A DNA stretch of 64,000 bases, taken from contig PLMA01000067.1 in assembly GCA_003141455.1 (NCBI GenBank), positions 17,340 to 81,339 on the forward strand, written 5' to 3'. Under the pieces are notes generated by a model that did no database searches, was not told where the DNA came from, and saw nothing but the letters and a program-made list of their open reading frames with translations. Positions within the stretch are counted from its first letter, which is position 1. Each line of letters starts with the position of its first letter. Shown here one piece after another: positions 40,398-57,715 of the stretch. A program made the translations under genes and the position numbers. Origin of the DNA: Chloroflexota bacterium. GTDB lineage: Bacteria; Chloroflexota; Limnocylindria; Limnocylindrales; CSP1-4.

Positions 40398-40515
40398 GTC
40401 GCAGATCGCGAGCCGCTCGATCGCGCCCGAGGCCGCCCACCGCATCGGCGATGGAGAAGAGCGGTCGGGCGAGCTGCCATCCGGTAGTCTGACGCCCGCC
40501 AACCAGGAGACGCCG

Positions 40516-41181
40516 ATGCGGTTTCGAACGCTGACCGTCAGTGTCGTGATCTTCGCCGTTGCCATGGCGTACGTTGAGTCGGCGTCCGTCGTGTATCTGC
40601 AGCGCGCACTTTCGATCTCGCCGGACCGGCTCTTTCCTCTACGCGGGCCGGACGTCGTGGGCAGCCTGGCGGCCATCGAGGTGGGCCGCGAGCTGGCGAC
40701 GCTCGTGATGCTCGTGTCGATCGGATGCCTGGCAGGGAGGAGCTGGGTAGATCGACTGGCCTGGACCGCGGTCGCGTTCGGCGTCTGGGACATCTCCTAC
40801 TACGGCTGGTTGTGGGTCTTCATTGGCTGGCCCCATTCCCCGGGAACATGGGACGTGCTGTTCCTCATCCCTGTCCCGTGGGCCGGGCCCGTCTGGGCGC
40901 CGGCGGTCGTAAGCCTGGCACTGGTCGGCTTCGGACTGGCTGCCGCTTACTCGAATCACGTCGGGCGCCCCGCGAGAGTTGGCGTCGGCCGCATCGCGGT
41001 TGCTCTTGCCGGAGGTCTGCTCGTCGTCCTGAGCTTCACGCTGGACGCCCCGGCTCTCATGGACGGTCACACACCGGGGTGGTATCCGTGGCCGGTGTTC
41101 GTGGCCGGGATGACCCTCGCCGGCTGGGCCGCCTGGACGGCGCTTCGTGCAGTCGAGCCCGAAGGGCGCGAGGGTACCTAG
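40516..41181 (+). CDS. hypothetical polytopic membrane protein (221 aa, Trp-rich)
   Basis: Six or more hydrophobic helices (VSVVIFAVAMAYV…, LATLVMLVSIGCLAG, AFGVWDISYYGWLWVFIGW…); family unknown. Confidence 0.5.
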   Translation: MRFRTLTVSVVIFAVAMAYVESASVVYLQRALSISPDRLFPLRGPDVVGSLAAIEVGRELATLVMLVSIGCLAGRSWVDRLAWTAVAFGVWDISYYGWLWVFIGWPHSPGTWDVLFLIPVPWAGPVWAPAVVSLALVGFGLAAAYSNHVGRPARVGVGRIAVALAGGLLVVLSFTLDAPALMDGHTPGWYPWPVFVAGMTLAGWAAWTALRAVEPEGREGT

Positions 41182-41213
41182 CGGTCCCGCCGGCCGACGA
41201 GGCGTCCGGCCGT

Positions 41214-41714
41214 CTACTCCTGACAGCCCTGGCAGCGACCGGCAATCGTCACGTGTGTCAGGTCCACGGAAAACCCCAGGTCGGCCGCCAGAGCATCCAC
41301 GATCAAGGCTCCGGTCTCCGGCCTGATCTCCCACGTGGCGCCGCAGCCAACGCAGTGGAGATGGCCGTGAACGTGTTCAGGGAGAACGTGGTACTCCTCG
41401 CGGCCGTCCGCGGCGTGTCCATGCCTGACCAGACCGAGGTTCTCCAGAACGTCGAGCGTCCGATACACGGTTGAGGGAGTGGTGGTTCTATCCAGCTCCC
41501 GACAGCGAGCGATCAGATCGGTCGCGGTGACGTGGCCCTCGTGCTCGCGCAGAACCTCGACGAGGGTCCGCCGCTGGGGAGTCCAGCGCAGCCCGCTGGC
41601 GCGCAGCCGATCGGCGACGCCGTCCCATGGGCTTGCGACGGAGCCTCGCGCAGGATTTGGTGAGTCGGGCTGTGGCAGCGTGCGGTCCTCGTTGCTCGCT
41701 CGATTGTGGCGCAT
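41214..41714 (-). CDS. Fur-family metalloregulator (Nur/Zur/Fur type)
   Basis: On the minus strand: LRWTPQRRTLVEVL DNA-binding helix, HGH…H…HCVGCG…CQGCQ metal sites. Transcribed divergently from the nikMN/cbiMN operon. Confidence 0.85.
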   Translation of the reverse strand: MRHNRASNEDRTLPQPDSPNPARGSVASPWDGVADRLRASGLRWTPQRRTLVEVLREHEGHVTATDLIARCRELDRTTTPSTVYRTLDVLENLGLVRHGHAADGREEYHVLPEHVHGHLHCVGCGATWEIRPETGALIVDALAADLGFSVDLTHVTIAGRCQGCQE

Positions 41715-41799
41715 TGCCGATGCGCCTTAGAATAGGGTCGTAGCGCAACGCGTTGCAATAGCCACGAGTCTCGACAGGCGCAACGGAGGAAGCGGACCA

Positions 41800-43083
41800 G
41801 TGCACATCCCCGATGGCTATCTGGCGCCCGCAGTCTCGATTGCCCTCGCCGTGCCTACGATCCCCATGTGGGCCATCGCCACACAGAGAGTCAAGAAGGT
41901 ACTGAACAACCGGACCGTGCCGCTCCTGGCCATCTTCTCCGCCTTGAGCTTCACGATCATGATGTTCAACATCCCCGTCCCGGGCGGCACGACGGCTCAC
42001 GGAGTAGGGGGGACGCTGATCGCGGTCGTTCTGGGCCCATGGGCCGCGGCCATCGCTGTGAGCACGGCGCTGATACTCCAGGCTCTCTTCTTTGGCGACG
42101 GTGGTGTCCTGGCGATCTTCGCCAACTGCCTGAATATGGGAATCATCTTGCCCTTCGTGGGCTACGTCACCTACAGATTGCTCGCGGCCGGATCACCCGT
42201 GCTATCGACCCGCCGGGCTGTCGCCGCCGGGATCGGCGCTTACGTCGGGATCACCACCGCTGCTCTCGCTGTCGGCATCGAGCTTGGCATCGAACCGGCG
42301 CTCTTCTCGCAGAACGGTCACGCTCTCTACAGCCCGTACGGTCTCTCCGAGGCGATACCGGCGATGCTGGCGGCTCACGTCTTCGGCGCCTCGATCGTCG
42401 AGGGTCTGATCACGGGGCTGGGAGTCTCCTACCTCCAGCGCCGCCATCCGGAGTACCTGACGAGCCTGCGCGGCATCTTCGCCCCGGACGCGGCCACTGA
42501 AGGGACCGCGGCGCGTCGCCCGCTGTGGCAGGTCGTGACGGCCGCGGCAGCCGTCGCCGCGGCCCTGCTTGCGATCGTGGGTCTGGTGGAGGGTGGGGGC
42601 AATCCGAATCGGATGTTCGGCGCCGATTGGTCTCGGGTCGACTGGCCGTCCGTTGCGACGATGCTCCTCGTGACCGCCGTCATCGGCATTGTGCTCGTCC
42701 CGGCGGCATACCTCGTGTTGCCCCGCGGTCTGAAACGAATCGGCGCGGCCTTCACGGCGATTGCGGTGATAGCGCCGATCGGGCTCATCGCCCCAGGCTT
42801 CGCGTATGGGGAGGGGAGCACGGGGAACGTGAAGGCGGCGTTCGGTTATGTCCCGTCGGGGCTGCAGGATCTGTCAGGCATCTTCGGCGCGCCTCTGTCG
42901 GGCTACAACTTGCCCCTGCCGTTCTTCTCACACGCCAGCGCGCCGCTCTGGCATGCGGCGGTCGGCTATGAGATATCCGGCATCCTCGGCGTGCTGCTCG
43001 TGGGCGGAGCGGTCTACGTCCTGGCCCGCGCCCTGCGACGAAACGGATCTGCTGACACGGCCCCGGAGGGAGTCGGAGCATGA
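41800..43083 (+). CDS. cbiM: ECF-transporter substrate component CbiM/NikM fused to a NikN/PDGLE-like C-terminal module
   Basis: Hallmark N-terminus MHIPDGYL (GTG start) and the CbiM/NikM helices. The protein is 427 aa, with an extra C-terminal membrane module containing …AFGYVPSGLQD… (PDGLE-like). Confidence 0.82.
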   Translation: MHIPDGYLAPAVSIALAVPTIPMWAIATQRVKKVLNNRTVPLLAIFSALSFTIMMFNIPVPGGTTAHGVGGTLIAVVLGPWAAAIAVSTALILQALFFGDGGVLAIFANCLNMGIILPFVGYVTYRLLAAGSPVLSTRRAVAAGIGAYVGITTAALAVGIELGIEPALFSQNGHALYSPYGLSEAIPAMLAAHVFGASIVEGLITGLGVSYLQRRHPEYLTSLRGIFAPDAATEGTAARRPLWQVVTAAAAVAAALLAIVGLVEGGGNPNRMFGADWSRVDWPSVATMLLVTAVIGIVLVPAAYLVLPRGLKRIGAAFTAIAVIAPIGLIAPGFAYGEGSTGNVKAAFGYVPSGLQDLSGIFGAPLSGYNLPLPFFSHASAPLWHAAVGYEISGILGVLLVGGAVYVLARALRRNGSADTAPEGVGA

Positions 43084-43105
43084 CCGGGCGCAAGAGGGAC
43101 AGGTC

Positions 43106-43981
43106 ATGACCACGGCCGCGCCCGCCGTCGGTAGGGGCCGGCGTCTCGAAGGGCGGATCGGCTGGCTCGAGCAGACGCTGGGCGGCATCACCGGCAACAT
43201 CGAGCAAGCGATCTTCACCGAGCACCACGCCAGATCCGCCGGCTGGCTGCAGCGGCGCGACCCGCGGGCGAAGATGATCGGCCTGCTGGTGGCGATCCTG
43301 GCGGCCAGCTTGACCACCTCGCTTGCCGGTCTGGCGATCCTCTATGCGGGCACTCTGGGCGCGGCGCGGGCCAGCCGGGTTCCGTTCGGCTTCTTCGTGA
43401 AGCGCGTCTGGCTCGGCATCCCGTTCTTCGCCGGAATCGTGGTGCTGCCGGCCATCTTCTTCGTCCCCGGCCCGCGGGTCTTCGATCTGGCCCTCGGACC
43501 GGCCCATCTGGCGCCTTCGTGGAACGGACTGGCAGGAGCGTTCATCTTCGTCAGCCGTGTCGGCGTCTCGGTCTCGCTGGCCGTGCTCCTGGTGGTGACC
43601 ACGCCCTGGGCCGACGTCCTCAAGAGCCTGCGGGCGCTCAAGGTGCCGCAGGTCTTCGTGCTCGTGTTGTCGATGACCTACCGCTACATCTTCCTCTTCC
43701 TGCACACGGCCAACGGGATCCTCCTGGCGCGCAAGAGCCGCGTCGTGGGCCGGACGAGCGGTGGGGAGCAGCGGCGCTGGATAACCGGCACCATGGGCAA
43801 CCTGATGAGCCGGGCATTCAAGATGAGCAATGACGTTTACGCCGCGATGCTCTCGCGTGGCTTCGCGGGCGAGATCCGGAGCTACGCCACGTACCGGCTC
43901 CGCGCCTCGGACGTGGCGGCGCTGGGGGGAGTGGCCGTCGTCGCCGCGGCCGCGGTGCTGGTCGGGCGGCTGCTGCCATGA
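43106..43981 (+). CDS. cbiQ: ECF-transporter T component CbiQ
   Basis: RDPRAKMIGLLVAILAA… CbiQ family N-terminus and 5–6 TM helices. ATG at 43106 inferred; the track ORF from 42848 overlaps cbiM out of context. Confidence 0.8.
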   Translation: MTTAAPAVGRGRRLEGRIGWLEQTLGGITGNIEQAIFTEHHARSAGWLQRRDPRAKMIGLLVAILAASLTTSLAGLAILYAGTLGAARASRVPFGFFVKRVWLGIPFFAGIVVLPAIFFVPGPRVFDLALGPAHLAPSWNGLAGAFIFVSRVGVSVSLAVLLVVTTPWADVLKSLRALKVPQVFVLVLSMTYRYIFLFLHTANGILLARKSRVVGRTSGGEQRRWITGTMGNLMSRAFKMSNDVYAAMLSRGFAGEIRSYATYRLRASDVAALGGVAVVAAAAVLVGRLLP

Positions 43982-44844
43982 CCGCCGGACTCCAACCTGC
44001 TGTCGCCGCGGGCCCGGTTGGGCCGGGCGAGCCACTCTACGACCTGCGCGGCGTCCGGTATGTCTACGCCGGTCGGCAGGTGGCGCTCGATGGCATCGAC
44101 CTCCAGATATGGCCCGGAGAGAGAGTCGTCCTGCTCGGGGCGAACGGCAGTGGGAAGTCGACGTTGCTCAAGCTGCTGGACGGGGTCGTGGGCCCAACCG
44201 GCGGAACCATGCGGGCTCTCGGTCGAGACGTGGCCGCCGTCGCCCAGGGCGAGGATGGCTTCCGCTTCCATCGCGAAGTGGGCCTCGTGTTCCAGGACCC
44301 GGACATCCAGCTGTTCAGCGCAACTGTGCTTGACGACGTGGCTTTCGGCCCGCTCCAGCTCGGCTTGAGCCAGGAAGAGGTCAAGCAGCGCTGCGAGGAA
44401 GCCCTGGCCGCGATGGAGATCGCGCATCTCGCCGATCGAGCCCCGTTCGAGCTGTCCGGGGGCGAGAAGAAGCGGGCGTCGATCGCGTCGGTGCTATCGC
44501 TGCGTCCGGATGTACTCCTCCTGGACGAGCCCACGGCCTCGCTGGATCCGCGGACCAAGTGGCTTCTGGTGGACTTGATCCAGCGTTTGTCGGCGTCCGG
44601 GCGGACCCTTGTCGTCGCCACGCACGAGCTCGACATCGTGCCGATCATCGCGGACAGAGTCGTGGTCCTCGGAGAGGATCGACGAATCATCGCCGACGGA
44701 CCTCCAGCAACGGTACTGGCCGATACGGCTCTGCTCGTGCGGGCGAACCTCATCCACGAGCATCTCCACGGCCACGGGGCAGTGGCCCACTCGCACCCGC
44801 ACGAGGCGGACGACACGCATCACGGCGCAGATCGCGAGGCGTAA
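43978..44844 (+). CDS. cbiO: ECF-transporter ATPase CbiO with His-rich C-terminal tail
   Basis: Walker A GANGSGKSTLLKLL, signature LSGGEKKRASIA, Walker B LLLDEPTASLD. C-tail HEHLHGHGAVAHSHPHEADDTHHG. Overlaps the cbiQ stop. Confidence 0.88.
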   Translation: MTAGLQPAVAAGPVGPGEPLYDLRGVRYVYAGRQVALDGIDLQIWPGERVVLLGANGSGKSTLLKLLDGVVGPTGGTMRALGRDVAAVAQGEDGFRFHREVGLVFQDPDIQLFSATVLDDVAFGPLQLGLSQEEVKQRCEEALAAMEIAHLADRAPFELSGGEKKRASIASVLSLRPDVLLLDEPTASLDPRTKWLLVDLIQRLSASGRTLVVATHELDIVPIIADRVVVLGEDRRIIADGPPATVLADTALLVRANLIHEHLHGHGAVAHSHPHEADDTHHGADREA

Positions 44845-44985
44845 GCGCCGCTTTGGCTGATGTCCTCTCGAGCGGCAGCGGCCGGAACGACTGACTCGAC
44901 CCATCGGTCGCGCCTCGGACGCACCCAGGACCCTTGCGCACAGGACCCTACCGAGGCGACTGAGACGCGCCACAATTGACCGGCT

Positions 44986-47676
44986 ATGGAGAGCCCCCAC
45001 TCCGGGCACGATTCCCGTCGATCTGAGCACGGACGGGCGCACCAAGGCGAAGCCAACCGTGCGGCCGAAGCTCTGTCTCTCAGCCGCGACTTGCTCGACG
45101 GCGAGGCCGAAATGGCCGCGCGCCAGCGCGTCTTCGACCAGGTTCTGGCCTCGGTGGAGCTCGTCCTGGCCACCGACGGAGCGGCATTCTGGCGCGAGGA
45201 GGCCGACCACTCGCTCGTTCTGACGGCGAGCCGGTTCGTCTCGGAGGGCGTACTCGAGGTGCTGGATCGCCACGCGACCATGCCCCTCCAGTCGATCATG
45301 CAGCGCTGGCCGGAGACCCCGCTCGTCGCGGTGCCGCTCGACGATCTGGCCAACCCGATAACCGAGGAGATTCGGTCCGTCACGGAAGCCGAGGAGATCG
45401 TCGGGCTGGCGGGCGTCCCGTGCCGCATCCCCGGTGAGATGCTCGGGATGCTGATCGTGATCCATCGCAGGCCCCACTCCTGGACGGCCCGCGACATTGG
45501 CCTGGCCACCGGCCTGGCCGGCCAGCTGGCCTTGGCATTGCAGAACGCACGCCTCTACGCCTCCGTGAGATCGCTGGCCAATCGGTTGACGGCGATCCAC
45601 GAACTGAGCTTGAGGTTGACTCAGCTCCGGGACGTCGACGCCATCGGCCGAGCGATCGTGGCCGAGGTAGGTCTCCTGGTCGACTGCGACACGGTCCGTG
45701 TCTATCGACTCGATTCCCAGGGCCAATTCTTCAGGCCCGTGGCCGCGTCGGGGACCTTCGCCGGCATCGAGTCGCCGCCGCTCGAAACCCTGATGGCCGG
45801 TCAGACCGAGACACTGCCGGGCTGGGTCGCGAAGCGCAACGAGCCGTTGATCATCCCCGACGCTTCCGTGGAACGGCGCTCCATATTTCGCTCGAGCCCA
45901 GGTCCTGAATCGTTGCTGCTTGTGCCGATGTCTTACGGCGATACCGTCCAGGGGGTCCTGGTCGTTTCCAAGCAGGGCGTCGGCAAGTACGGCTCCGACG
46001 ACGAACGCGCCCTCTCGATCTTCGGGCGGTACGCGGCGCAGGCGATGGTCAACGCCGACAACATCGAGCAGCTGGAACATCAGCACGCCTTGCTCGAGCG
46101 CCAACTTGCCGCCCAGCGAAGACTCCTCGACCTCAGCGAGAAGTTGGTCTCGACCTTGGATCCGCGCAGAGTCCTGGAGCAGATTGCGGACACGATCGGG
46201 ATGGTCGTCCGCTACGACCGTCTGACGATCTACCGCCTTGAGAGTCAGGCCGGCGGGATCGAACCGGTCCTGTCCCGGGCGAAGTCGGGCGAAATCGCCG
46301 ATCCAACGCCGGACCGCGCCTTCTTCGACGAAGGACTCACGAGTTGGGTCATTGGGCGCGGCGACGCCGTCTGCGCCAACGATGTGGGCCAGGGCGCCCT
46401 GGCCGTCGGGCTCGACAACGCGGTTCGGGCCGGGCCGGCCTCTGAGGAATCTGTTCTGGCGGCCGGCCGCCGAGCCGACCAGGACGAGCGGATCACGCAG
46501 AACATGATCGTGGTCCCGCTAAGGGTCCACGGCAACGTGGTCGGCAGCCTGAACCTGACGCGGGTCGGCCGTCAGGAGGCCCACTTCAGCGAGCACGAGT
46601 TCGAGCTCTGCAAGCTGTTCGCCGGCCAGGCGTCGATCGCCCTGCAGAACGCCGAGGCCCACGTCACCATGGCCACCCGAGCCGACCTGGACGCTCTGAC
46701 CGGACTGCGGAACCACGGCACGTTCCAGCGCGACCTCACGTCGGTAATCCAAGCGGGCAAGCCGTTCTCCTTACTGATGATGGATCTTGACTCGTTCAAG
46801 GCCTTCAACGACGCCTATGGCCATCCCGCCGGAGACACGCTGCTGGCGGCGGTGGCAAAAGCGATCGTCAGTGCCATTCGCCAGAACGACAGTGCGTATC
46901 GTTACGGCGGCGACGAGTTCGCTCTGCTCCTCATCGGGGCATCCAGCGACCACGTCGAGGAGGTGGCGGCCCGTGTCCGCGTGGCCGTTCGCGAAGGCGT
47001 CATGGCCTCGCCAGTCGGCGGCATGGGGCTCGACGTCGGCGTATCCATTGGGGCCGCCCACTGGCCGGCCGATGGGCCGGGGAACACCGCACTCGTGGAG
47101 GCGGCCGACGCGGCCCTGTACAGAGCGAAGCGGCTTCGGAGCGACCCGTTCGCAGCCGGGGCCGCGGCCGCGGAGCCCGCTCGTTCGGCCCGCTCCGCGT
47201 CCGACGCCCTGGTGGAGGCCGCCCATGATCTGGCTGGGGCAGCGACACCCAGCGAGGTAGCCCAGATGACTGCCCGCCACGCGGCCACGTTCTGCGGGGC
47301 TACCGACGCGTTCGTGGCCTACCTGCAGCCCGAGCCGGCCGCGGCCGTGCCAAGTCCGGCCTCTCGGCGGCCTTCAGCCGAGACATCGAAGCCACGGCTG
47401 CGGATTCTGGCCGCATCCGGACGATTCAAACGGCGCGCCCCCACACTCCGCTCCGACGGCGGCTTCTGGCGGCGCGTTCTCGACGCGGGCTCGCTCCAGG
47501 AGGACGCAGGCCCAGAGGTCTGTCTTGTCGGAGCGCCGCTGTGCGTCGTTGGCAGCGTCGCGGGATTAGTCGGCCTCGTCGTTCCGGCGGCGGCGTCCGC
47601 AAGTTGCAGGACAGCCTTGGGTCAGCTGACGGCAGTCGCGTCGGCGGCCCTGGAGCGCGCGAGCCGGCCCGCGTAG
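44986..47676 (+). CDS. multi-GAF sensor diguanylate cyclase (GGDEF)
   Basis: Several GAF-like segments followed by GGDEF (RADLDALTGLRNHGTFQ…MMDLDSFKAFNDAYGHPAGD…YRYGGDEFALLL) and a further C-terminal region of about 180 aa. Confidence 0.85.
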   Translation: MESPHSGHDSRRSEHGRAHQGEANRAAEALSLSRDLLDGEAEMAARQRVFDQVLASVELVLATDGAAFWREEADHSLVLTASRFVSEGVLEVLDRHATMPLQSIMQRWPETPLVAVPLDDLANPITEEIRSVTEAEEIVGLAGVPCRIPGEMLGMLIVIHRRPHSWTARDIGLATGLAGQLALALQNARLYASVRSLANRLTAIHELSLRLTQLRDVDAIGRAIVAEVGLLVDCDTVRVYRLDSQGQFFRPVAASGTFAGIESPPLETLMAGQTETLPGWVAKRNEPLIIPDASVERRSIFRSSPGPESLLLVPMSYGDTVQGVLVVSKQGVGKYGSDDERALSIFGRYAAQAMVNADNIEQLEHQHALLERQLAAQRRLLDLSEKLVSTLDPRRVLEQIADTIGMVVRYDRLTIYRLESQAGGIEPVLSRAKSGEIADPTPDRAFFDEGLTSWVIGRGDAVCANDVGQGALAVGLDNAVRAGPASEESVLAAGRRADQDERITQNMIVVPLRVHGNVVGSLNLTRVGRQEAHFSEHEFELCKLFAGQASIALQNAEAHVTMATRADLDALTGLRNHGTFQRDLTSVIQAGKPFSLLMMDLDSFKAFNDAYGHPAGDTLLAAVAKAIVSAIRQNDSAYRYGGDEFALLLIGASSDHVEEVAARVRVAVREGVMASPVGGMGLDVGVSIGAAHWPADGPGNTALVEAADAALYRAKRLRSDPFAAGAAAAEPARSARSASDALVEAAHDLAGAATPSEVAQMTARHAATFCGATDAFVAYLQPEPAAAVPSPASRRPSAETSKPRLRILAASGRFKRRAPTLRSDGGFWRRVLDAGSLQEDAGPEVCLVGAPLCVVGSVAGLVGLVVPAAASASCRTALGQLTAVASAALERASRPA

Positions 47677-47779
47677 GCGAACGCGGGGTCGCCCCTCCCG
47701 TGTCTGCGGCCGGACGAACCTATACTCCCGCCATGTCAGGCCTGACCCTCGATCTGGTCGCGTCGCCGCGGATCGCTGC

Positions 47780-49405
47780 GTGATGTACGCGCGTCCATGG
47801 CCCGTGCCCGCCGGGTCGCGCAACGACAGGCTGGGCCGTCTCGTCCTCGCCTCCGCAACCGCCGTGCTGGCGGTCATCGTGATCGTCGGGATGGCCTGGC
47901 ACCCCTCGACTGCAGTTGCCGCTCGCAACAGCGTCTCTATCCTGGGCCCCGCCGCCGCCTCACTGGATCCGGCAGTCCAATCCGACGCGGGCAGCGCTCA
48001 GGTGGTGGCGCAGCTGTTCGAGTCGCTGACGGCCGTCGACTCGAACCAGCACCTGCAACCGGCGCTGGCTGCCAGCTGGGAGACGCAGGCGGACGGGAAG
48101 CGCGTGGTCTTCCATCTGAGGCCCGGCCTGACGTTCTCGGATGGCACAGCTCTCACTGCCGATGACGTCGTCAAGAGCTGGATGCGGGTCCTCGCGCCGG
48201 CCAATCCGAGTCAGCTGGCATCGCTCCTCGATGACGTCGTCGGCGCCCGAGCGTATCGAGAGGGGAGCGGGCCCTCGTCATCCGTCGGCATCAGCGCACC
48301 GAGCTCCACACAGGTCCAGGTTGACCTGACGAACCCCGCGGCCGACTTCGCGGCGATCGCCTCCAGCCCCACTCTGGCAGTGGTTCCACCTGATCTGGAC
48401 TCGAAGTCGAGCCTCCTGAAGCCCGGCAGCTTCGTCGGAAGCGGCGCGTACGTCCTCAGCGGCCTCTCAGACACCGAAACCACACTTGCGGCCAACCCCC
48501 ACTACTGGGCGGGCAAGCCAACGATCGGCATCGTCCACCTTCTCAGCTCTACGGGTGGCAAGAGCTCGGTGGACATGTTCCAGACCGGCGATCTCGACTA
48601 CACGCCTATCTCCAGCGGGGACGCCACCTGGGTCGCCTACGACAAGACGCTCGGCCCGTCGCTTCGCATCGAGCCGTCGCCCTCAGTCGAGTTCTACGGC
48701 TTCAACACCACCAAGGCACCCTTCAACGACGTTCACGTGCGCCGAGCCTTTGCGCTCGGCATTGACTGGAACCGCATCGTGGCTCTGCTCTCGAATCCCC
48801 TCACCGTGCCGGCCACCGGCATGGTGCCCGACGGCGTGCCGGGCCACAGCGCCACGGACTTCGGGCCCAAGCTGGATCTGGTCAAGGCCAAGTCCGAGCT
48901 TGCGGCGGCCGGCTATCCCAACGGCGCAGGCTTCCCGAGAGTCACTCTGGTGACCGGCGGCGGCAGTGTGGACGGCGCGATCGTACGTCAGCTCCACGAC
49001 AATCTGGGCATCGACATCTCCTTCGAGGCACTCGACTGGGCGAGCTACAACCGGCGACTGCTCACGGATCCACCTGCCTTCTGGGAGATGGATTGGGTTG
49101 CCGACTACCCGGGCGGCAACGATTTCCTGGGGCTTCTTCTCGGTTCCGGCCAGACCAACAACTTCGGCCGGTGGACGAACGCCGATTTCGATGCGGCCGT
49201 CTCGCGAGCCGGGTCGGCCACCGACGCCGCGTCGATGCAGCAGGCACTCGATCAGGCTCAGGCGATCGTTGCGGATCAGGCGCCGGTGATCCCGGTTGAC
49301 TACGGAGCCGGATACTCTCTCGCGGCCGAGGGTCTGCTGGGCGCATTCCCGAACAGCCAGGGCCTGGTGCGATACGCGGGCCTGGCGTGGGCTTCGGGGT
49401 CATGA
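47780..49405 (+). CDS. ABC-type solute-binding protein, family 5 (DppA/OppA/NikA-like), membrane-anchored
   Basis: N-terminal anchor LVLASATAVLAVIVIVG, then the SBP_bac_5 core (QLFESLTAVDSNQHLQPALAASWETQADGKRVVFHLRPGLTFSDG). No permease or ATPase genes adjacent. Confidence 0.8.
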   Translation: MMYARPWPVPAGSRNDRLGRLVLASATAVLAVIVIVGMAWHPSTAVAARNSVSILGPAAASLDPAVQSDAGSAQVVAQLFESLTAVDSNQHLQPALAASWETQADGKRVVFHLRPGLTFSDGTALTADDVVKSWMRVLAPANPSQLASLLDDVVGARAYREGSGPSSSVGISAPSSTQVQVDLTNPAADFAAIASSPTLAVVPPDLDSKSSLLKPGSFVGSGAYVLSGLSDTETTLAANPHYWAGKPTIGIVHLLSSTGGKSSVDMFQTGDLDYTPISSGDATWVAYDKTLGPSLRIEPSPSVEFYGFNTTKAPFNDVHVRRAFALGIDWNRIVALLSNPLTVPATGMVPDGVPGHSATDFGPKLDLVKAKSELAAAGYPNGAGFPRVTLVTGGGSVDGAIVRQLHDNLGIDISFEALDWASYNRRLLTDPPAFWEMDWVADYPGGNDFLGLLLGSGQTNNFGRWTNADFDAAVSRAGSATDAASMQQALDQAQAIVADQAPVIPVDYGAGYSLAAEGLLGAFPNSQGLVRYAGLAWASGS

Positions 49406-50766
49406 GGCCGCTCACTCGCCGGCGGATCGTCCGCCACAGCACTGCCGTGCTCCTGTGTGCCGTCGTCGCACTGCTGATGGCTCCGGGCGTGGTTGCCGGC
49501 GCGTCTGTCTCGTTCGGCACTCCCTCGGCCAAGTCCACGTTCGGGAAAGGCATCGTCTTCACCCAGCCCTATAGCGGCGGCCGGATCGAGGAGGCGCAGA
49601 TCGTCATCGACCTGCCCGGCGATATCGGTCCCTCGGTGTCCGCGCTCCAGAGTCTGGGATCGACCGCGCTCACCTACACCTTGGACACATCCAGCGGCGA
49701 TCTGTCTCCTTTCCAGCCGCTGACGGCGCACTTCCAGGCCATTTTTTCCGACGGCACGGTCCAGGCCGGCCCGGACATTCACGTCACCTACGCCGACGAT
49801 CGGTTCACCTGGAAAGCGAAGTCCGGCAAGCTGGTCACGATCCACTGGTTCCAGGGAACTGATGCTTACGCCCAGCAACTGCTGGCATACGGCGAGCAGG
49901 GCGTCGCCAAGTCGGCCGCCTTCCTGGGCATCAATGAGACCAAGCCGGTCGACTTCTACATCTACCCGAGTCAGAGCGCCTTCCAGGCCGGCCTGAGCGT
50001 CCCTGAGACGATCGGCGGACAAACCCAGCCGACCTATCGCACCTGCTTCGCCCTCGTGGCCCCCAACGACCTCGCCTACGGCAGCACAGTCGTTCCCCAC
50101 GAGCTGACCCACATCGTCTTCAACGACATCACCGACAACCCATACCACTCGCCGCCTCGGTGGCTGAACGAAGGTCTGGCGGTCTACCTCTCCGAAGGCT
50201 ATGGCGGCGACAACCGCCAGCTGGTCTCCCGGGCGGTCAAAGACGGTAGCCTCGTTCCGCTTCCAGCCCTGGCCGGGTACTTCGCTCTCGACCAGGCTCG
50301 GATCTACCTCTCGTACGCCGAGTCCGTCTCGGCGGTGGACCTCATGGTTCGCAAGTACGGCAAGTCCGCGATCCAGAAGCTCGTCAAGACATACGGCAAC
50401 GGCGCTACCGACGACGAAGCGTTCACGGCCGCGTTCGGCATCGATACGGCCGCGTTCAACAAGGCATGGCTGGCCGACAACAGCGTCGCCGCCTCCGCCA
50501 CTTACGGCCCGCGGCCGGCCCCGACGGGCCCGATCCCGCCAGGCTGGACGGGCTCGTCGCAGACCGTCCCTCCAGTCGAACCCCCGTCGCCGAGTCCGAC
50601 CGGCTCGAGCTCGCCAGGCGGTCAAGCGAACCTGCCGACCCGGCCCGACTCGACCGCCCTGGCTGGCTTCATCGCCCTGGTGGGCCTGATCCTGCTTGGA
50701 GCCGGCATATTCCTGCATCTGCAGTCCCAGGGCGAGCGAACGCCGCAGGCCTGGCCGCCGTCTTAG
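49402..50766 (+). CDS. putative secreted/membrane-anchored zinc metallopeptidase (MA clan, Peptidase_MA_2-like)
   Basis: Signal/TM, HELTHIVFND (HEXXH) with a downstream NEGLAVYLSEGY (third ligand Glu), a Pro-rich linker and a C-terminal TM anchor. The ATG overlaps the SBP stop (ATGA). Confidence 0.65.
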   Translation: MRPLTRRRIVRHSTAVLLCAVVALLMAPGVVAGASVSFGTPSAKSTFGKGIVFTQPYSGGRIEEAQIVIDLPGDIGPSVSALQSLGSTALTYTLDTSSGDLSPFQPLTAHFQAIFSDGTVQAGPDIHVTYADDRFTWKAKSGKLVTIHWFQGTDAYAQQLLAYGEQGVAKSAAFLGINETKPVDFYIYPSQSAFQAGLSVPETIGGQTQPTYRTCFALVAPNDLAYGSTVVPHELTHIVFNDITDNPYHSPPRWLNEGLAVYLSEGYGGDNRQLVSRAVKDGSLVPLPALAGYFALDQARIYLSYAESVSAVDLMVRKYGKSAIQKLVKTYGNGATDDEAFTAAFGIDTAAFNKAWLADNSVAASATYGPRPAPTGPIPPGWTGSSQTVPPVEPPSPSPTGSSSPGGQANLPTRPDSTALAGFIALVGLILLGAGIFLHLQSQGERTPQAWPPS

Positions 50767-50915
50767 GCCCCGCGCAGGGACCGGCGCCGCGTTCCGGTCC
50801 GTTGCCGCCGGCCAACCGCCGCGGCCCAGATGCCGCGACGCGGGCCCCCGGCTCTGATAGATTGAGCGGCCTCGATGAGCAATCCGATCACGACCCATCG
50901 TCGCAGGCCGGCCTA

Positions 50916-51194
50916 GTGTCTCCGTCTGGGCCCGAGGTCGTCGAATTCAGGCTCGGTGACGTGCTGACCCTCCGGCGCGCCCATCCGTGCGGCAGCCGCG
51001 AGTGGCTCGTGGACCGGCTGGGAGCCGACATAGGGCTACGCTGCCGCGGTTGCGATCGTCACGTCATGCTGGATCGCAGGACGCTGGAACGTCGCCTCAT
51101 GGGCTTCGTGTCGCGCGGCGATCTGGCCATCAGCCATGCCGTCGCGCCTCAGGCTCGCGACGGAAGACCCGCCGGCCCGGGCACCGACCGATGA
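50916..51194 (+). CDS. DUF951-family small protein
   Basis: FRLGDVLTLRRAHPCGSREWLVDRLGADIGLRCRGCDRHVMLDRRTLERRL matches the DUF951 pattern (HPCG…W…R.GADI…C..C.…R…E) as I recall it. GTG start inferred. The upstream part of the track ORF is rejected. Confidence 0.5.
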   Translation: MSPSGPEVVEFRLGDVLTLRRAHPCGSREWLVDRLGADIGLRCRGCDRHVMLDRRTLERRLMGFVSRGDLAISHAVAPQARDGRPAGPGTDR

Positions 51195-51283
51195 AGGGCA
51201 CCCTATCTCCGAAGAGGGTTCGCAAGACCACGAACCCAAGCTCGAAGCGCCGGACCACGCAACCGGCCGCCGAGCCGGGCGGC

Positions 51284-52744
51284 ATGGCCGTACTTCAAAA
51301 CAGGCCGTTCCTGCTGCTTTGGCTGGCCCAGCTCTCGACGCAGGTGGGCGGCAACACGGTCATCTACGGCCTGACGATCCTGATCAGGGAGCTCACGCAC
51401 TCCAACACGGCGGTCAGTGTGCTCTTCCTGAGCTTCCTTGTGCCGGCGATCGTCTTCTCGGCCATCGCAGGGGTCTTCGTCGATCGAGTCGACAAGCGGC
51501 ACATGCTGGTCGTCACGAACGTACTCCGGGGTCTCGCGTTCCTGGCGATCGTCCTGGTCGGCGACAACCTGCTCCTTCTCTACACGCTGATGGTGCTGGT
51601 GGCGACGATCACGACCTTCTTCGGGCCGGCGGAAGCCTCCATGATCCCGTTCCTCGTCCCGCGCCCCCAACTGGTGGCCGCGAACGGCTTCTTCACGCTG
51701 ACGTCGAACGTGGCGTTTGCCCTTGGCTTCGCCCTGGTCGGCCCATTCCTGATCGCTCTGGCGAATCCTCAGGCGCTGGTGGCCATAGTCGCCGCCCTCT
51801 ACTTCGTGGCAGCGGCCTTCTGCTGGACGCTGCCCTCCGACCCGCCCGTGGAAGACGGTGCGGAGACTGCCGGTCAGGCCGTCGCGGACGCGGAGCGAGC
51901 GGTCGAGACGATGCTCGGCGAACTCGGCGAGGGAATGGCCTACATTCGCGACCATCGAGGGGTCCGTTGGACGCTCTCGTTCCTGGGGATCACCGGGGCG
52001 CTGGTCGGGATCCTGGGCGTGCTGGGCGTGGGATTTGCAGAGACCACACTCGCTCTCGGTGAGAAAGACTTCGTCGTGGTGGTTCTGCCGCTCGGGCTGG
52101 GCATCGTGACCGGGATCGTCGGCCTGAACTACTTCGGGCGGCTCGCTCCACGCCGGCGCGCCATCGAGGTTGGGATGATCAGCCTCGGCATTCTCGTGGC
52201 GCTGCTTTCGGTCGCCGGGCCGATCTCTCACTTCCTCGAGAACAACGTCGCGGCCCAATTCCGTGAGGCGAGCCGGGTCGTTTCGGTCCTGTCCCTGGTG
52301 ATCGTCATCGCCTACCTGATCGGCTGCGCCTACGCGGTCGTGGCCATATCGGCCCAGACGCAGCTCCAGGAGGATCTGCCGGAAGAAGTCAGGGGCCGTG
52401 TCTTCGGCGTTCTGAACATGCTCGTCTCCATCTCCAGCCTCGCCCCTATCCTCGTCGTGGGGTTCATCGCCGACCTCGTTCAGCCTGAGGGGGTGATCCT
52501 CGTCGCCGGGATCGTGACCGCACTTTGGGGGGTCGCCAGCGTCGTGAATCGCGGTTCCCTCCGACCGGCCGAGGTGGAGGCTCGGGCGGGTGCGCCGATG
52601 ACCGGTTCGCCGGCGGACCCCATCACCGTCGCTCTATCCCCCAGCGATCTGACGGCGGGCCCCGCCGCAGGTACGGACGACGATGCGGATCCCGCCGTGC
52701 ACCACGCGTCGAGGCGGGGTCTTAAAGACGGAGAGTCATCCTGA
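51284..52744 (+). CDS. MFS transporter (12–14 TM)
   Basis: MAVLQNRPFLLLWLAQLSTQVGGNTVIYGLTILI… typical MFS N-terminus. An alternative start at ATG 51191 overlaps the DUF951 stop (ATGA) and adds a Lys/Arg-rich 31-aa leader. Confidence 0.8.
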   Translation: MAVLQNRPFLLLWLAQLSTQVGGNTVIYGLTILIRELTHSNTAVSVLFLSFLVPAIVFSAIAGVFVDRVDKRHMLVVTNVLRGLAFLAIVLVGDNLLLLYTLMVLVATITTFFGPAEASMIPFLVPRPQLVAANGFFTLTSNVAFALGFALVGPFLIALANPQALVAIVAALYFVAAAFCWTLPSDPPVEDGAETAGQAVADAERAVETMLGELGEGMAYIRDHRGVRWTLSFLGITGALVGILGVLGVGFAETTLALGEKDFVVVVLPLGLGIVTGIVGLNYFGRLAPRRRAIEVGMISLGILVALLSVAGPISHFLENNVAAQFREASRVVSVLSLVIVIAYLIGCAYAVVAISAQTQLQEDLPEEVRGRVFGVLNMLVSISSLAPILVVGFIADLVQPEGVILVAGIVTALWGVASVVNRGSLRPAEVEARAGAPMTGSPADPITVALSPSDLTAGPAAGTDDDADPAVHHASRRGLKDGESS

Positions 52745-54153
52745 TGGCGAGTGCGCCCGAGGCCGGAATGGAGCCCAGAGAGAGCACGCCCGCCCAATGG
52801 CGCGCCGCCGCGATGGGGATCCTCTTCGGTGGTTTTGCCGTGGGGCTCATGGCCAGCGGCAAGCGGATGAGCCGCGCGGTCCCGCTGATCACGGCCGGAG
52901 TCGCCCTCGGCTGCGCCGTTCCGGTGGCGCTGGCCTCGCGGCGGCCGCCCATCTCGCCGGAGGAGGCCGCCGACGCGCTAGTCGACGCTCCTGATCCGCC
53001 CACGTTCAGCATCGTCGTCGCCGCCCGCGACGAGGCTGCCGTTCTCCGACAGCTGGTCGCCGACGTCAGCCGGCAACACTATCGGAGAAGGGACGGCCGG
53101 CCGCTCTTCGAGCTCATCGTCGTGGACGACAGGTCGACCGACGGCACCGCCGACGCCGTCATCGCGGCAGCCGCGGACGGGGGCATCGAGGCCGTCACAC
53201 GCGTCGTCCCAAGACGCGGAGAGGGCCTTCCGGATGGGAAAGGCGCGGCACTCACGGCGGCCCAACCCGACGAGTGCGGCGGCGACGTGATCCTCGTGCT
53301 CGACGCGGACGCGCGCCTGGAGCCCTGGTTTCTTCGCAGAGCGGCCGGGTACTTCGCGGCCGGGGCCAATGCCGTCACGGCACGGCGGCGGATACTGGAA
53401 TCGGACCACGGCTGGCTGGAGGGTGCGCAGGCCGATGAGCAGACGCTCGACGGGGAGCTGAACCGAGGGCGCTGGGCGCTCGGAGGATGTTCCGAGTTCC
53501 GCGGCAACGGCATCATGGTTCGTCGCGAGCTTCTGGCGCGGGTCGGAGGATGGCGCGCCTCGGCGCTGACCGAGGACATCGATCTGTCGAGCCGGATCGC
53601 TGCCGTGGCAGGGGAACGCGTCGCCTGGGCCCTGGACGTGGAGGTATGGGAGGAGCCCGTTCGAAGCGGAGAGCGCCTTTGGAGCCAGCGGTTGCGCTGG
53701 GCGGAAGGCGCGCTGAGGCGGGCCTTCGAGCACGGGCCGGCGGTAGTGGCGAGCCCGCGTCTCTCAGCCGGCGCTCGACTCGACTTCGTAACCTACGTCG
53801 GGCAGCTGGCCGTTCCGCCGATCGTCCTGGGGGCTGCGGCATCGGCCGTTGTGACCGGACGGCGCCGGGCACTGGCCTCGATCGTCGGCGGTTACCTCGG
53901 CACAAGCGCCCTGCTCGGCTGGGACGCTCTTCGCTGGGAGAGCCACACCGACGGCGGAGCGCTTTCCACGAGCGAGCGACTGAGGCGTACGTTCCGGGTA
54001 TCGCTCTTCGGGGGCCTGTGGCTCGTAGCCGTGCCGCGAGCACTCGCCGCCCTGGCCTTCCGACGTGGACCTATCCGCTACGTGAAGATGGAGCATCGCG
54101 GCGCGAGCGAGCCCGAGTCCGATCCCTCGGCAACGAGACGGTCCGAGGCCTAG
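52744..54153 (+). CDS. membrane-embedded family-2 glycosyltransferase, processive type (QxxRW)
   Basis: FSIVVAARDEAAVL…LIVVDDRSTDGT (DXD region), LVLDADARL, and WSQRLRWAEG (the QxxRW motif of processive beta-glycosyltransferases). N- and C-terminal TM segments. The start overlaps the MFS stop (TGATG). Confidence 0.78.
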   Translation: MASAPEAGMEPRESTPAQWRAAAMGILFGGFAVGLMASGKRMSRAVPLITAGVALGCAVPVALASRRPPISPEEAADALVDAPDPPTFSIVVAARDEAAVLRQLVADVSRQHYRRRDGRPLFELIVVDDRSTDGTADAVIAAAADGGIEAVTRVVPRRGEGLPDGKGAALTAAQPDECGGDVILVLDADARLEPWFLRRAAGYFAAGANAVTARRRILESDHGWLEGAQADEQTLDGELNRGRWALGGCSEFRGNGIMVRRELLARVGGWRASALTEDIDLSSRIAAVAGERVAWALDVEVWEEPVRSGERLWSQRLRWAEGALRRAFEHGPAVVASPRLSAGARLDFVTYVGQLAVPPIVLGAAASAVVTGRRRALASIVGGYLGTSALLGWDALRWESHTDGGALSTSERLRRTFRVSLFGGLWLVAVPRALAALAFRRGPIRYVKMEHRGASEPESDPSATRRSEA

Positions 54154-54447
54154 ATCTGCTGGGCAGAATCGGTGCGGCAGGTACGGCGGTCCGTGATAAG
54201 CCCGAGATAAGCGGGACCACGTAGAGTCGGTTCGCCAGCGCTGCCGTTGCCGAGCCATCCGGTTGGACTTGAGCGGTCGCAGCGTTGGGGCCGGCTGCCG
54301 TCGGCCTTCGTGACGGCGCGCTTTGCCAGGAGGGGCCATCGACTAGCCGCGTTTCTCCGGGGACGCGCACGGCGGTTCGCCATTCGCGCCTCGCACCCAC
54401 CGCTTCCCGCCGCAGGTTGCTTTCCGCCCGCCTCTACAGGAGGTCCC

Positions 54448-55206
54448 ATGAAACGAGCGGAAGTGTTGCTCGTTTCCATCTTGCTTGCGGCGTCGACGCT
54501 CGGTGCGACGGCACAGGCCGTGTCCGCCCACAGGGGCGACGTCTGGTCCAACTCAGACGGGTTCAGTTCAAACTGCCTGGGGTTCACCGACACGTACCCC
54601 CAGCAGCTGTACAACCTCGCCAACGCTCAATTGCCCAAGCTCGGGTACAGCCCGTTGCGTGGCGACCTCGGGCCGGCTTTCACGACATCGGCATTCCTCG
54701 GCAACGTGGCGTACCCCTGGGCGGTGTACGCGCACACGCATGGTGACAACTACTGGGCGGCGTCCGGCTATCCGAACGTCGACTCGGCCATTCTCCAGGA
54801 CCCCGGCTCGGGCGGGTGCAACGACTCCGGGCGGGACAAGATCCGGTCGAGCGCGATCAAGTCGGCCACTCATGGCGGGGTGTTCAACCTGGTGATCATG
54901 TCGACATGCATGCTCGGCGCGAATTCGAGCACCATGCCCGACGCGTTCCAGATCGAGAAGACCAAGTCATCGACCCAGCGCGAGTTCTACCTCGGCTACG
55001 TGAACTCCACCTACGACAGCGCCGCCTTCCGGTTCGAGCAGGCGTTCTGGAGCTACCTCAACGCCAACGTCCTCCATCTCAGAACCGCATACCAGGCCTT
55101 CACCTACGCGATGAGCATTGGCGGGTACCCCTATCCGGACTCCGCCAATCCGTTCCAGGCCAATTGGTGGGGCAACCCCAACTTCAACGGCGTTCCGGGG
55201 TGGTGA
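54448..55206 (+). CDS. hypothetical secreted protein (253 aa)
   Basis: Signal peptide MKRAEVLLVSILLAASTLGATAQA, AGGAGG 4 nt upstream; family not recognised (YAHTHGDNYW … NLVIMSTCMLG). Confidence 0.55.
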   Translation: MKRAEVLLVSILLAASTLGATAQAVSAHRGDVWSNSDGFSSNCLGFTDTYPQQLYNLANAQLPKLGYSPLRGDLGPAFTTSAFLGNVAYPWAVYAHTHGDNYWAASGYPNVDSAILQDPGSGGCNDSGRDKIRSSAIKSATHGGVFNLVIMSTCMLGANSSTMPDAFQIEKTKSSTQREFYLGYVNSTYDSAAFRFEQAFWSYLNANVLHLRTAYQAFTYAMSIGGYPYPDSANPFQANWWGNPNFNGVPGW

Positions 55207-56174
55207 TGATGACTAGAAGGAAGACAGCTGCAACCTTCACGACGAGTGGAGCTTTCAAGGCGGTCCTGGCCGCTGCCGTCGTGGTATTCGGTCTGGCCGC
55301 CACGGCCGATCGGATGATCGCTACCAGCACCGGCGGCTCGGACACGGTCGTCGGCGTCGGCGGCGTCGACGCCGCGAAAGTCGGCCCGCCGGTCATGACC
55401 GCCACAGTTCTCAATGCCGACGACAGCCCCGACGTGTTCCGTCGTGCGGCGTCGGCCAGGGATGCCTTCGGCTTCCCGGTCGGTGCGACACGCACAGGCA
55501 AGCATATCCGTGACACCTACAGACCAACCGACTACGACGAGGTGGAAGAGGTCGACGGCACGGGCCAGCCTCTGGCCCTGACGCAGTTCGATCCGGCAGG
55601 CCGCCTGGTCTCGGCGGTGCGTTTCGACCGACCCTCTGCGACTTCGCCGAAGGTCGATAGGGACGCGGCTACGAAGGCGGCCACGCGCGGTCTCTCCGCT
55701 TCCGGTGTCGCCGTGGCGGGCCAGTACCAGGCCGATGCCGATGCGGTCCTGGGCGGCTGGAACGTCCATTGCGATCGCTCGCAGGACGGCTTCAAGGTTC
55801 GCGGGGACGAAACCCGCGTCCACGTATGGCCCGACGGCCGCATCCAGAGCGTCGCCCACGTCGAGCACCAGCTGGCGGCCGCGCCGGCTGAGCGGCTCGG
55901 GATCGACGACGCGAGGAAAGTGGTCAGCGGTCAGTTCGATCGCTGGTTCGCCGGTCGTGCCTCGAGCTACGCGGTACAGCAGATGACCCTCGAGTGGGTC
56001 GAGCCAAATGCGGCGTTCGACGCCGCCAAGCTATCCGCTGCTCCTGCTCCGTATCGGCTGGCTTGGGTCGCCAATGTCAAGCCGTCGGGCGTCGCGGCAG
56101 GCTACGTTTCGCTGGTAACCCTGTACGTGGACGCCGCAAACGGCACCATTCTTGGCGGTGACGTGGTCGAGTAG
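55206..56174 (+). CDS. membrane-anchored protein with tandem PepSY-like domains
   Basis: N-terminal anchor FKAVLAAAVVVFGLAA. Two segments carry a PepSY-like pattern (…RDAATKAATRGL…, …ARKVVSGQF…YVDAANGTILGG). The ATG overlaps the upstream stop (TGATG). Confidence 0.5.
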   Translation: MMTRRKTAATFTTSGAFKAVLAAAVVVFGLAATADRMIATSTGGSDTVVGVGGVDAAKVGPPVMTATVLNADDSPDVFRRAASARDAFGFPVGATRTGKHIRDTYRPTDYDEVEEVDGTGQPLALTQFDPAGRLVSAVRFDRPSATSPKVDRDAATKAATRGLSASGVAVAGQYQADADAVLGGWNVHCDRSQDGFKVRGDETRVHVWPDGRIQSVAHVEHQLAAAPAERLGIDDARKVVSGQFDRWFAGRASSYAVQQMTLEWVEPNAAFDAAKLSAAPAPYRLAWVANVKPSGVAAGYVSLVTLYVDAANGTILGGDVVE

Positions 56175-56272
56175 ACTCGACCGTCACTGACTGTTCGTCC
56201 GTGGCCGTCGATATGGCGGCCACGGAGGACTGAGCAAAGGAACTCCTACGAGGCAACGGGGAAGGGGATTAC

Positions 56273-57217
56273 ATGACGGACGATCGACGCTGCATCAGGG
56301 TCGCGGCGGTCGCTGCGGCGCTATGTCTGTTCGCCTCAGCCTGTGCGGGGTCGCCGGTTTCGACTTCGATTTCGACGACTGCCGCATCGGGCACGCCTCA
56401 GTTGGTCGTTCTGGGAGACGGGGTGAGCGGCGGATTCGGGCTGTGGAGCTTCGAAGCACCCGATCGCTGGGCGGCGCTGGCGCCGCTCTCTTCGGCGACG
56501 GGAATCGCTCGGTTTGGCAACAGCCTGGCTATAGCCAGCCGCGGATCCGTCGAGGTCCGATCTGCCGGGACGCCGGCCACCGCGGGGACGGCGCTTCCGA
56601 TGAAATGGCAGGCACCGGCTCCGACGACGCCCATCGTCGCTCTGGCTCAGTCGCCCAACGGCAAAGTCGCCCTCTCTACGTCGGACGGGGAGTCCCATAG
56701 CTACTGGCTCGTCGCCGCCGATGGCAGCGTCGAGCCCCTGGAGCCAACCCCGTCGCAGTCGTTTACCGCACTCGTGGCCTGGTTGGACGACTCGCGATTG
56801 CTCGTCCTGACTACCGACAAGCAGCAGGTTTCCAGGCTCGCGGTCGTGGATGTGACAGCCCGGACGATCGAGCCGTCGCCGGTCCTGGCGGGGATCCGTG
56901 TCTTCGCCGTGTCCCACGACAGACGCTACCTGTCGGTTGCGACCGAGACAACCGTCTACGCCGGACCGGTCGAGGCGTTCCTGGGGACCGGCCAGCCGGC
57001 GACGGTCGCCACGGTCGATCCTTCCGCGGTGGTGTGGGGCCTCGCCCTGGACGACGCCGGGACGCGGTTGGCGATGCTATCGGGGACGGTGTCCGCCGAC
57101 GGACTGGTCACCTCGGTGCGAGAGATCGGGTATGCGAAGGGCTCGGAGTCATGGGTCAAGGAGTTCGACTCGCCCGCGCCATTCGGCAAGGCCACAGCTC
57201 AGGTGTGGATGCCCTGA
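56273..57217 (+). CDS. hypothetical lipoprotein (probable beta-propeller-like)
   Basis: Lipobox-like LCLFASAC after a basic N-terminus, then Ser/Thr/Val-rich repeats. Confidence 0.5.
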   Translation: MTDDRRCIRVAAVAAALCLFASACAGSPVSTSISTTAASGTPQLVVLGDGVSGGFGLWSFEAPDRWAALAPLSSATGIARFGNSLAIASRGSVEVRSAGTPATAGTALPMKWQAPAPTTPIVALAQSPNGKVALSTSDGESHSYWLVAADGSVEPLEPTPSQSFTALVAWLDDSRLLVLTTDKQQVSRLAVVDVTARTIEPSPVLAGIRVFAVSHDRRYLSVATETTVYAGPVEAFLGTGQPATVATVDPSAVVWGLALDDAGTRLAMLSGTVSADGLVTSVREIGYAKGSESWVKEFDSPAPFGKATAQVWMP

Positions 57218-57309
57218 GGCTCTCGCTGGAGCGCCACGGATCGTCACGCTGATGCTTCGACCGCAACTCCGCGCTGGTGGGCAGGCCTGTGCTACGATCC
57301 GCCCCGCTC

Positions 57310-57386
57310 GGGCGGTTAGCTCAGTTGGTTAGAGCGCATGCTTGACATGCATGAGGTCAGAGGTTCAAGTCCTCTACCGCCCACCA
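57310..57386 (+). tRNA. tRNA-Val (anticodon GAC)
   Basis: Acceptor GGGCGGT/ACCGCCC. D-arm GCTC-AGTTGGTTA-GAGC. Anticodon stem CATGC/GCATG with loop TTGACAT. T-arm AGAGG-TTCAAGT-CCTCT, discriminator A and encoded CCA. Confidence 0.8.
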
Positions 57387-57389
57387 TTC

Positions 57390-57675: not shown

Positions 57676-57715
57676 GGGGGCGGCGGGAGCCGCAAGCGGC
57701 GAGTCGGGAGACGAG

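Follow-up and report, generated by a model that had tools for sequence, protein, structure and literature searches.

The stretch of DNA analysed here, referred to as the window, comprises 64,000 nucleotides of contig PLMA01000067.1 from the metagenome-assembled genome of a soil or peat Chloroflexota bacterium of the class Limnocylindria (assembly GCA_003141455.1, positions 17,340 to 81,339 of the forward strand). Within it we investigated two adjacent genes on the + strand that encode a family-5 solute-binding protein (SBP) and a metallopeptidase. The SBP gene runs from an ATG at 47783 to 49405 and encodes a protein of 540 amino acids, identified as OppA/MppA-like by PF00496 and by a profile search of the Protein Data Bank (PDB). 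A GTG at 47780 is an alternative start, and the public annotation of an identical sequence adopts the 540-residue form. The peptidase gene (49402..50766, + strand, ATG start) encodes 454 amino acids and was identified by PF13485 as a gluzincin metallopeptidase, predicted to be extracytoplasmic and tethered to the membrane. The two reading frames share an ATGA at 49402..49405 (+ strand), which can be read directly from the sequence: within ggggtcATGAggcc at 49396-49409, the SBP stop codon TGA occupies 49403-49405 and the peptidase start codon ATG occupies 49402-49404. A G-rich, Shine-Dalgarno-like run lies just 5' of this ATG.

The SBP matched the SBP_bac_5 profile (PF00496) over positions 2-367 of 368, with an E-value of 5.5e-69 and 233.5 bits against a cutoff of 32.4, and is a member of this family of cluster C peptide, nickel and opine binders at the curated threshold. 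In a family-profile search of the PDB it matched Bacillus subtilis OppA (9e-66), Escherichia coli MppA (6e-57) and B. subtilis DppE (5e-56), with enterobacterial OppA at about 1e-55; a single-sequence search also recovered B. subtilis OppA, at 5.6e-46. Structures of NikA reached only 1.6e-9 to 4.6e-9, compared with 1e-46 for OppA, and the NCBIfam models of NikA scored 67.6 bits against a cutoff of 393 (TIGR02294) and 70.4 against 600 (Opp5A_nikA), the match being restricted to the N-terminal 65-80 residues or so. The protein also fell below the NCBIfam equivalog cutoffs for OppA (139 of 947 bits), DppA (76 of 1005) and PRK09755 (196 of 1098); it is a relative of the named binders and an equivalog of none.

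A tryptophan-to-tyrosine stretch of the SBP, W438-V-A-D441-Y (49094..49108, + strand), aligned with the W-x-x-D-Y stretch of the OppA/MppA proteins, which reads WLGDF in B. subtilis OppA and WVGDY in MppA. Across 58 homologues W438, V439, A440 and D441 were invariant. In solved complexes of OppA and DppA the aspartate of this stretch forms a salt bridge to the α-amino group of the ligand. Full-length likeness together with the conserved amine-binding aspartate thus places the SBP in the OppA/MppA/DppE peptide-binding subgroup. At the other end of the protein, a Kyte-Doolittle scan and the alignment of the same 58 homologues revealed an N-terminal hydrophobic helix (residues 16-41; 47828..47905, + strand). 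The aligned N-termini consist of an Arg-rich n-region, a hydrophobic core of about 20 residues and then a conserved AWHP…AAAR, and the alignment holds no lipobox cysteine.

The peptidase matched Peptidase_MA_2 (PF13485) with an E-value of 7.7e-40 and 137 bits against a cutoff of 32.4. A 100%-identical protein is encoded on NCBI contig PLMR01000025.1 (assembly GCA_003142555.1), and several close homologues are named 'peptidase MA family metallohydrolase [Candidatus Limnocylindrales bacterium]' at NCBI. An AlphaFold2 model computed with 73 homologues had a mean pLDDT of 84, exceeding 90 across the folded parts. It begins with a hydrophobic helix at residues 4-25, a signal peptide that ends near VAGAS, followed by an FN3-like β-sandwich (residues 36-149; 49507..49848, + strand) and, as also defined by alignment, a catalytic α/β domain (residues 154-359; 49861..50478, + strand). 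A stalk rich in Pro, Ser, Thr and Gly comes next (residues 360-417; 50479..50652, + strand). It was recognised from its composition (15 Pro, 10 Ser, 7 Gly and 6 Thr among 58 residues) and from the model, in which residues 360-417 are disordered and pLDDT drops below 50 at 382-416. The stalk opens with YGPxPAPTGPxPPGW, a motif that varies little or not at all among close relatives but has degenerated in distant ones. A C-terminal transmembrane helix (residues 418-443; 50653..50730, + strand), placed by the model and by hydropathy, completes the protein and is kept in distant relatives, with basic residues after it. The hydropathy scan by itself marked residues 8-40 and 415-442.

Within the catalytic domain, HELTH occupies residues 233-237 (50098-50112, + strand), and the third zinc ligand, E257 (50170-50172, + strand), lies within WLNEGLAVY. 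H233 was conserved in 72 of 73 homologues and E234, H237, E257, Y305 and E307 in all 73, and HExxH was intact in 130 of the 131 peptidase copies in the loci that we fetched, the exception being a frameshifted read. By sequence, HELTH and E257 make up a complete gluzincin zinc site. In the cluster representative P0112 the first His of HEXXH is replaced by Leu, the sole such case among the 73 aligned proteins; the change may reflect a sequencing error or an inactivated copy.

As modelled, the catalytic domain has the thermolysin-like fold of gluzincins. M1 enzymes, including a two-domain M1 protein of Deinococcus radiodurans, headed the Foldseek matches, although sequence identity to the structural relatives (M1, M9 and M30) amounted to 11-17%, and the likeness to M9 and M30 (13-14%) is structural alone. 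A search of PDB sequences gave nothing beyond one chance match. The peptidase lacks GxMEN and does not match PF01433, the marks of M1, and Pfam and NCBIfam scans returned no match to M9 or M30; it is a gluzincin outside the named families. In M1 enzymes the GxMEN motif holds the free N-terminus of the substrate. The equivalent strand of the peptidase reads TIGGQTQ, of which GG alone is conserved, and the protein is more likely an endopeptidase than an aminopeptidase.

These results bear out what an initial annotation of the stretch had observed; its interpretation is supported in part. Both of its family calls pass profile searches, the peptidase call being reinforced by the gluzincin fold, and the topology that it proposed for the peptidase (HEXXH…E, a Pro-rich stalk and a membrane anchor) agrees with hydropathy, composition and the model. 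The annotation had also called the SBP membrane-anchored; the hydrophobic N-terminal helix is present, and could be either an uncleaved signal anchor or a cleavable signal peptide. Both proteins are predicted to be exported and to carry their globular parts on the outer side of the cytoplasmic membrane.

We then turned to the distribution of the pair. Scanning one genome per species yielded at least 276 relatives of the peptidase, and the best 80 of these, at 41-91% identity, were analysed. All but two were labelled Chloroflexota, Chloroflexi, Chloroflexia or Limnocylindria/-ales, and the two exceptions are probably mis-binned contigs. By tblastn, an SBP lay directly upstream of the peptidase in 74 of the 74 loci that offered 1.5 kb of upstream sequence; the sole locus without an SBP match had just 110 nt available there. 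A reciprocal scan of metagenomes from the SBP gave the same picture, with the peptidase next in line in all 59 loci that had an SBP of at least 44% identity and enough downstream sequence. The co-occurrence that had been suggested as a check on the initial annotation is therefore found from both directions. SBP5 proteins at 27-31% identity share the WVADYPG motif, and none of them is followed by the peptidase; downstream we found OppB and OppC in four cases, OppD/F ATPases in one and a second SBP5 in one.

An exhaustive profile search from the peptidase returned 947 clusters (50% identity) at E-values of 1e-30 or better. The SBP is still found upstream of a relative that scores 223 bits (L089), whereas two at about 200 bits (L090 and L091) have the same domain layout and no SBP, with ubiA and prfA upstream instead. 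The pairing is thus derived, specific to one clade and strictly maintained within it. Since SBP5 relatives at 31% identity or less sit in opp operons and distant peptidases occur without an SBP, we infer that an older ecto-peptidase, at first standing alone, acquired an Opp-type binder. The SBP would have become detached from its permease genes and attached to the peptidase, in a pair that is lineage-defining for Limnocylindria.

The arrangement of the two reading frames is likewise kept. Among 79 related loci the overlap is 4 nt (NTGA) in 57, 13 nt in 8 and 1 nt in 6, so that 71 overlap to some extent, and most of the others come from long-read assemblies with apparent frameshifts. Translational coupling, which the initial annotation had deduced from the ATGA, therefore extends as a prediction to the related loci: the two proteins are probably translated from one message in coupled amounts. 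The SBP was the better conserved partner in 78 of the 79 loci, with median identities of 54% for the SBP and 46% for the peptidase; it appears to be under purifying selection, which we counted as support. An Rfam scan of 40000-58000 detected no regulatory RNA near the pair, and consensus scans for promoters and terminators gave matches at or below the level of shuffled sequence.

No genes for an Opp/Dpp permease or ATPase were detected within 10 kb on either side of the pair on contigs of up to 1.1 Mb. The only ATP-binding cassette (ABC) components in the window are the CbiM, CbiQ and ATPase of an energy-coupling factor (ECF) transporter at 41800-44844, and the neighbourhood of the pair holds none of the OppB/C and OppD/F genes that define an Opp/Dpp importer. 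The statement that the SBP has no ABC permease or ATPase nearby thus holds across the whole clade and beyond the window, and it survives the search for dppBCDF-like genes downstream on these longer contigs.

Downstream of the pair, on the + strand, lie genes for a small DUF951 protein (50916..51194; PF06107, E 6e-20), an MFS_3/DHA3-like transporter (51191..52744; PF07690, PF05977 and TIGR00900, 2e-36) and a membrane GT2 glycosyltransferase (52744..54153; PF13641, E 1e-23). The first two recur downstream in 70 of 70 and 69 of 69 loci and are conserved partners that had not featured in the initial annotation; the third recurs in 32 of 63. An ATGA at 51191 joins the DUF951 and MFS genes, a 1-nt overlap at 52744 joins the MFS gene to the GT2 gene, and the three (50916-54153) form a second set, putatively coupled in translation, after the pair. 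Between the peptidase and DUF951 genes, 52 of 80 loci carry two DUF881 genes (for example L052, 11245-12701), and in L089 (9377-13576) a TldD/PmbA pair is inserted there too. The DUF881 insertions are lacking in the window and its subclade. Insertions occur after the peptidase only, never between it and the SBP.

Upstream, by comparison, the neighbours turn over: a GGDEF gene is adjacent in 12 of 64 loci, the ECF ATPase in 19 of 63 and CbiM in 18 of 60, and clustering of reading frames across loci gave no further conserved upstream neighbour. In the window the GGDEF protein (44986-47676) contains three regions of GAF type, and a stretch close to its C-terminal end (residues 843-874) is hydrophobic; its public gene calls start later, giving 854-861 amino acids. 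The CbiM of the window is a long form of 427 amino acids with a C-terminal extension, and a gene for a FUR-family regulator (41214-41714, minus strand) is divergent from the cobalt/nickel ECF transporter genes.

The rest of the window, at 64-70% G+C, consists of housekeeping genes, nearly all on the + strand, among them typA, mnmA, alaS, yceG, efp, xseA, dxs, recN, xerD, der, nrdR, dcd and thrS. Between alaS and yceG/mltG an open reading frame for an FtsA/MreB-like ATPase (7928-9187) is followed by a Baseplate_J-like one (9194-10918, E 1.7e-9). Three consecutive reading frames of 252, 322 and 314 amino acids at 54448-57217 encode N-terminal signal-like hydrophobic segments and match nothing in Pfam. 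Their conservation is confined to the subclade of the window, and the counterpart of the first in locus L003 gave a weak match to Peptidase_C39_2. After a tRNA-Val(GAC) gene (57310-57386) comes a weak match to a T-box-like leader (57423-57653; E 0.004, 29 bits where the gathering threshold is 93), which stands directly upstream of thrS (57665-59584) and in the same orientation.

Taken together, we tentatively favour, with somewhat less than even confidence, a cell-surface pair for processing and capturing peptides that hands its catch to a permease encoded elsewhere. Peptide capture and processing had been among the suggestions of the initial annotation, and it remains the best reading of an SBP that resembles OppA, MppA and DppE and keeps the α-amine-binding aspartate. 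The peptidase, standing on its proline-rich stalk of about 55 residues, would cut extracellular or envelope-derived polypeptides near the membrane. The SBP, held at least initially by its N-terminal hydrophobic helix and probably in contact with the peptidase, would capture the resulting short peptides by their free N-termini and deliver them to an ABC permease of the Opp/Dpp type whose genes lie at another place in the genome, in the way that MppA of E. coli supplies OppBCDF. Its single copy, its presence throughout the class and its housekeeping surroundings make it probable that the pair meets a core need and is no accessory trait. That need would be the supply of peptides or amino acids or the turnover of wall or secreted peptides. 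Members of the Limnocylindraceae are described as having lost six amino-acid pathways, with an inferred dependence on external amino acids and peptides (PMC13212565). Class-wide retention of the pair fits these auxotrophies, although that study covers one family only.

Several observations weigh against this reading. Alignment showed that the residues with which Salmonella typhimurium OppA holds the peptide C-terminus, R413 and H371, are not kept in the SBP: the equivalent of R413 is E435, which varies across the family, and the region of H371 carries a 4-residue deletion relative to MppA and OppA. Since these positions are not kept, the length or chemistry of the ligand may differ from that of OppA. 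An AlphaFold2 model of the SBP computed with 58 close homologues reached a pLDDT of only 50, because every available homologue was at least 66% identical, and the pocket was thus judged from the alignment. A tblastn search for OppB and OppC found neither in the 64-kb window and the fetched loci, which together make up 2.09 Mb; the one Opp operon that we traced, from the OppB of a locus sharing the motif, belongs to Dehalococcoidia and not to Limnocylindria. Conservation across the class and synteny with housekeeping genes are unusual for nutrient scavenging and fit a role in the envelope about as well. Finally, peptide capture leaves the linkage to DUF951 and MFS_3 unexplained.

Envelope maintenance is the alternative that survives best, and we regard it as doubtful. 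Here the peptidase would trim the cell's own wall or secreted peptides, such as stem peptides or spent signal peptides, and an MppA/DppE-like SBP would recover them for recycling. The murein-tripeptide binders MppA and DppE are indeed among the closest solved relatives of the SBP, but the general peptide binder OppA outscores both. The genomic setting of the pair suits such a role, as do the MFS transporter downstream and, in half of the loci, the membrane GT2. In Bacillus, DUF881 members sit in a division and cell-wall cluster. The two DUF881 genes that directly follow the peptidase in many loci would point the same way, were they not absent from the window and its subclade. To our knowledge, moreover, peptidoglycan peptidases belong to M15, M23, M14 and NlpC/P60 and not to gluzincins resembling M1, M9 or M30.

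A second alternative removes transport altogether and seems to us unlikely. The SBP would be a dedicated, substrate-recognising subunit of a two-protein surface protease complex, in which its part is to bring in or present substrate, to gate activity or to sense a peptide, possibly while docked on YGPxPAPTGPxPPGW. The MFS_3 exporter might supply the substrate, and the complex and the DUF951-MFS_3 exporter would then take part in a Limnocylindria-specific cycle of export, processing and recapture, or of envelope maintenance. In favour of this proposal, the two genes are linked strictly one to one throughout the clade and their start/stop overlap is conserved; no permease gene accompanies them anywhere in the 2.09 Mb searched; the SBP is more strongly conserved than the enzyme; and DUF951 and MFS_3 are invariably present downstream. 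The SBP, however, fully retains the ligand-clamping aspartate and an OppA-like sequence, as expected of a working transporter component, and no gene for a precursor peptide or a synthetase is evident in the gene block. Orphan SBP genes that rely on a distant permease are common, for example those of MppA and of the OppA paralogues of Borrelia. As a docking site for the SBP, the stalk motif was unsupported, being degenerate in L089/P0391, which keeps its SBP.

Mere conserved synteny, in which two functionally unrelated proteins are adjacent by descent, appears very unlikely. All of the loci come from one class, and shared ancestry contributes to the pattern; yet the upstream flank turns over completely, insertions never split the SBP from the peptidase, and the stop/start overlap is kept down to 41% identity. 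The remaining proposals of the initial annotation, that the SBP is a sensor module for the GGDEF protein or handles nickel for the ECF transporter, are highly implausible and fail because both neighbours are specific to a subclade: adjacency is seen in the window and its close relatives only, L003 keeps the pair without either gene, the GGDEF protein has a GAF-GAF-GGDEF architecture without an extracytoplasmic domain, ECF transporters use a membrane S-component and not an SBP, and the NikA profile scores given above contradict a nickel binder.

The searched literature contained no mention of translational coupling between an SBP5 and an extracytoplasmic peptidase of clan MA, although both families are well known and there are precedents for orphan SBP5 genes and for opp-linked peptidases. 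The Limnocylindria are Chloroflexota that abound in soils, peat and lakes but have not been cultured, and whose envelope and nutrition are little known; the pair offers a concrete candidate for peptide acquisition or recycling in these organisms. It is also a natural example of an ABC-type binder without its transporter genes that has been joined to an enzyme. If the SBP acts without a permease, it would add to the non-transport uses already known for this fold; if it uses a distant one, the pair would be an ordinary, neatly organised device for harvesting peptides.

Among known systems, E. coli MppA offers the closest parallel for the SBP itself. MppA is a member of the OppA subgroup of SBP_bac_5, matches the SBP over nearly its full length and keeps W-x-x-D-Y. 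The mppA gene has no permease or ATPase genes next to it, and its product borrows OppBCDF. MppA, however, is found in a diderm, soluble in the periplasm, and its gene is not coupled to that of a peptidase, whereas the SBP has an N-terminal hydrophobic anchor, is coupled to an ecto-peptidase and has no permease in the loci searched. Another orphan protein of the SBP5 fold, the mycobacterial lipoprotein LpqW, has a non-transport role in glycolipid biosynthesis on the outward-facing side of the membrane. LpqW resembles the SBP in having a family-5 fold and no accompanying transporter genes; it differs in that its peptide-binding features are lost and that it is not known to be linked to a peptidase.

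For the peptidase, the structural relatives M1, M9 (the Vibrio and Clostridium collagenases) and M30 (hyicolysin and lugdulysin) gave no Pfam match at threshold. In the peptidase HEXXH and the glutamate lie 19 residues apart instead of 18, and the Pro-rich stalk and C-terminal transmembrane anchor are additions relative to them. For the pair as a whole, Lactococcus lactis provides a functional precedent, since its wall proteinase PrtP feeds OppA and its oppDFBCA-pepO operon links a metallopeptidase gene to an SBP5 gene. The B. subtilis dppA-E operon shares with L. lactis opp-pepO, and with the pair, this linkage of a metallopeptidase to an SBP5. The enzymes concerned, PepO (M13) in L. lactis and DppA (M55) in B. 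subtilis, are cytoplasmic and are encoded in operons together with permease and ATPase genes, whereas the Limnocylindria pair combines a peptidase predicted to be extracytoplasmic with a stop/start overlap and no transporter genes alongside.

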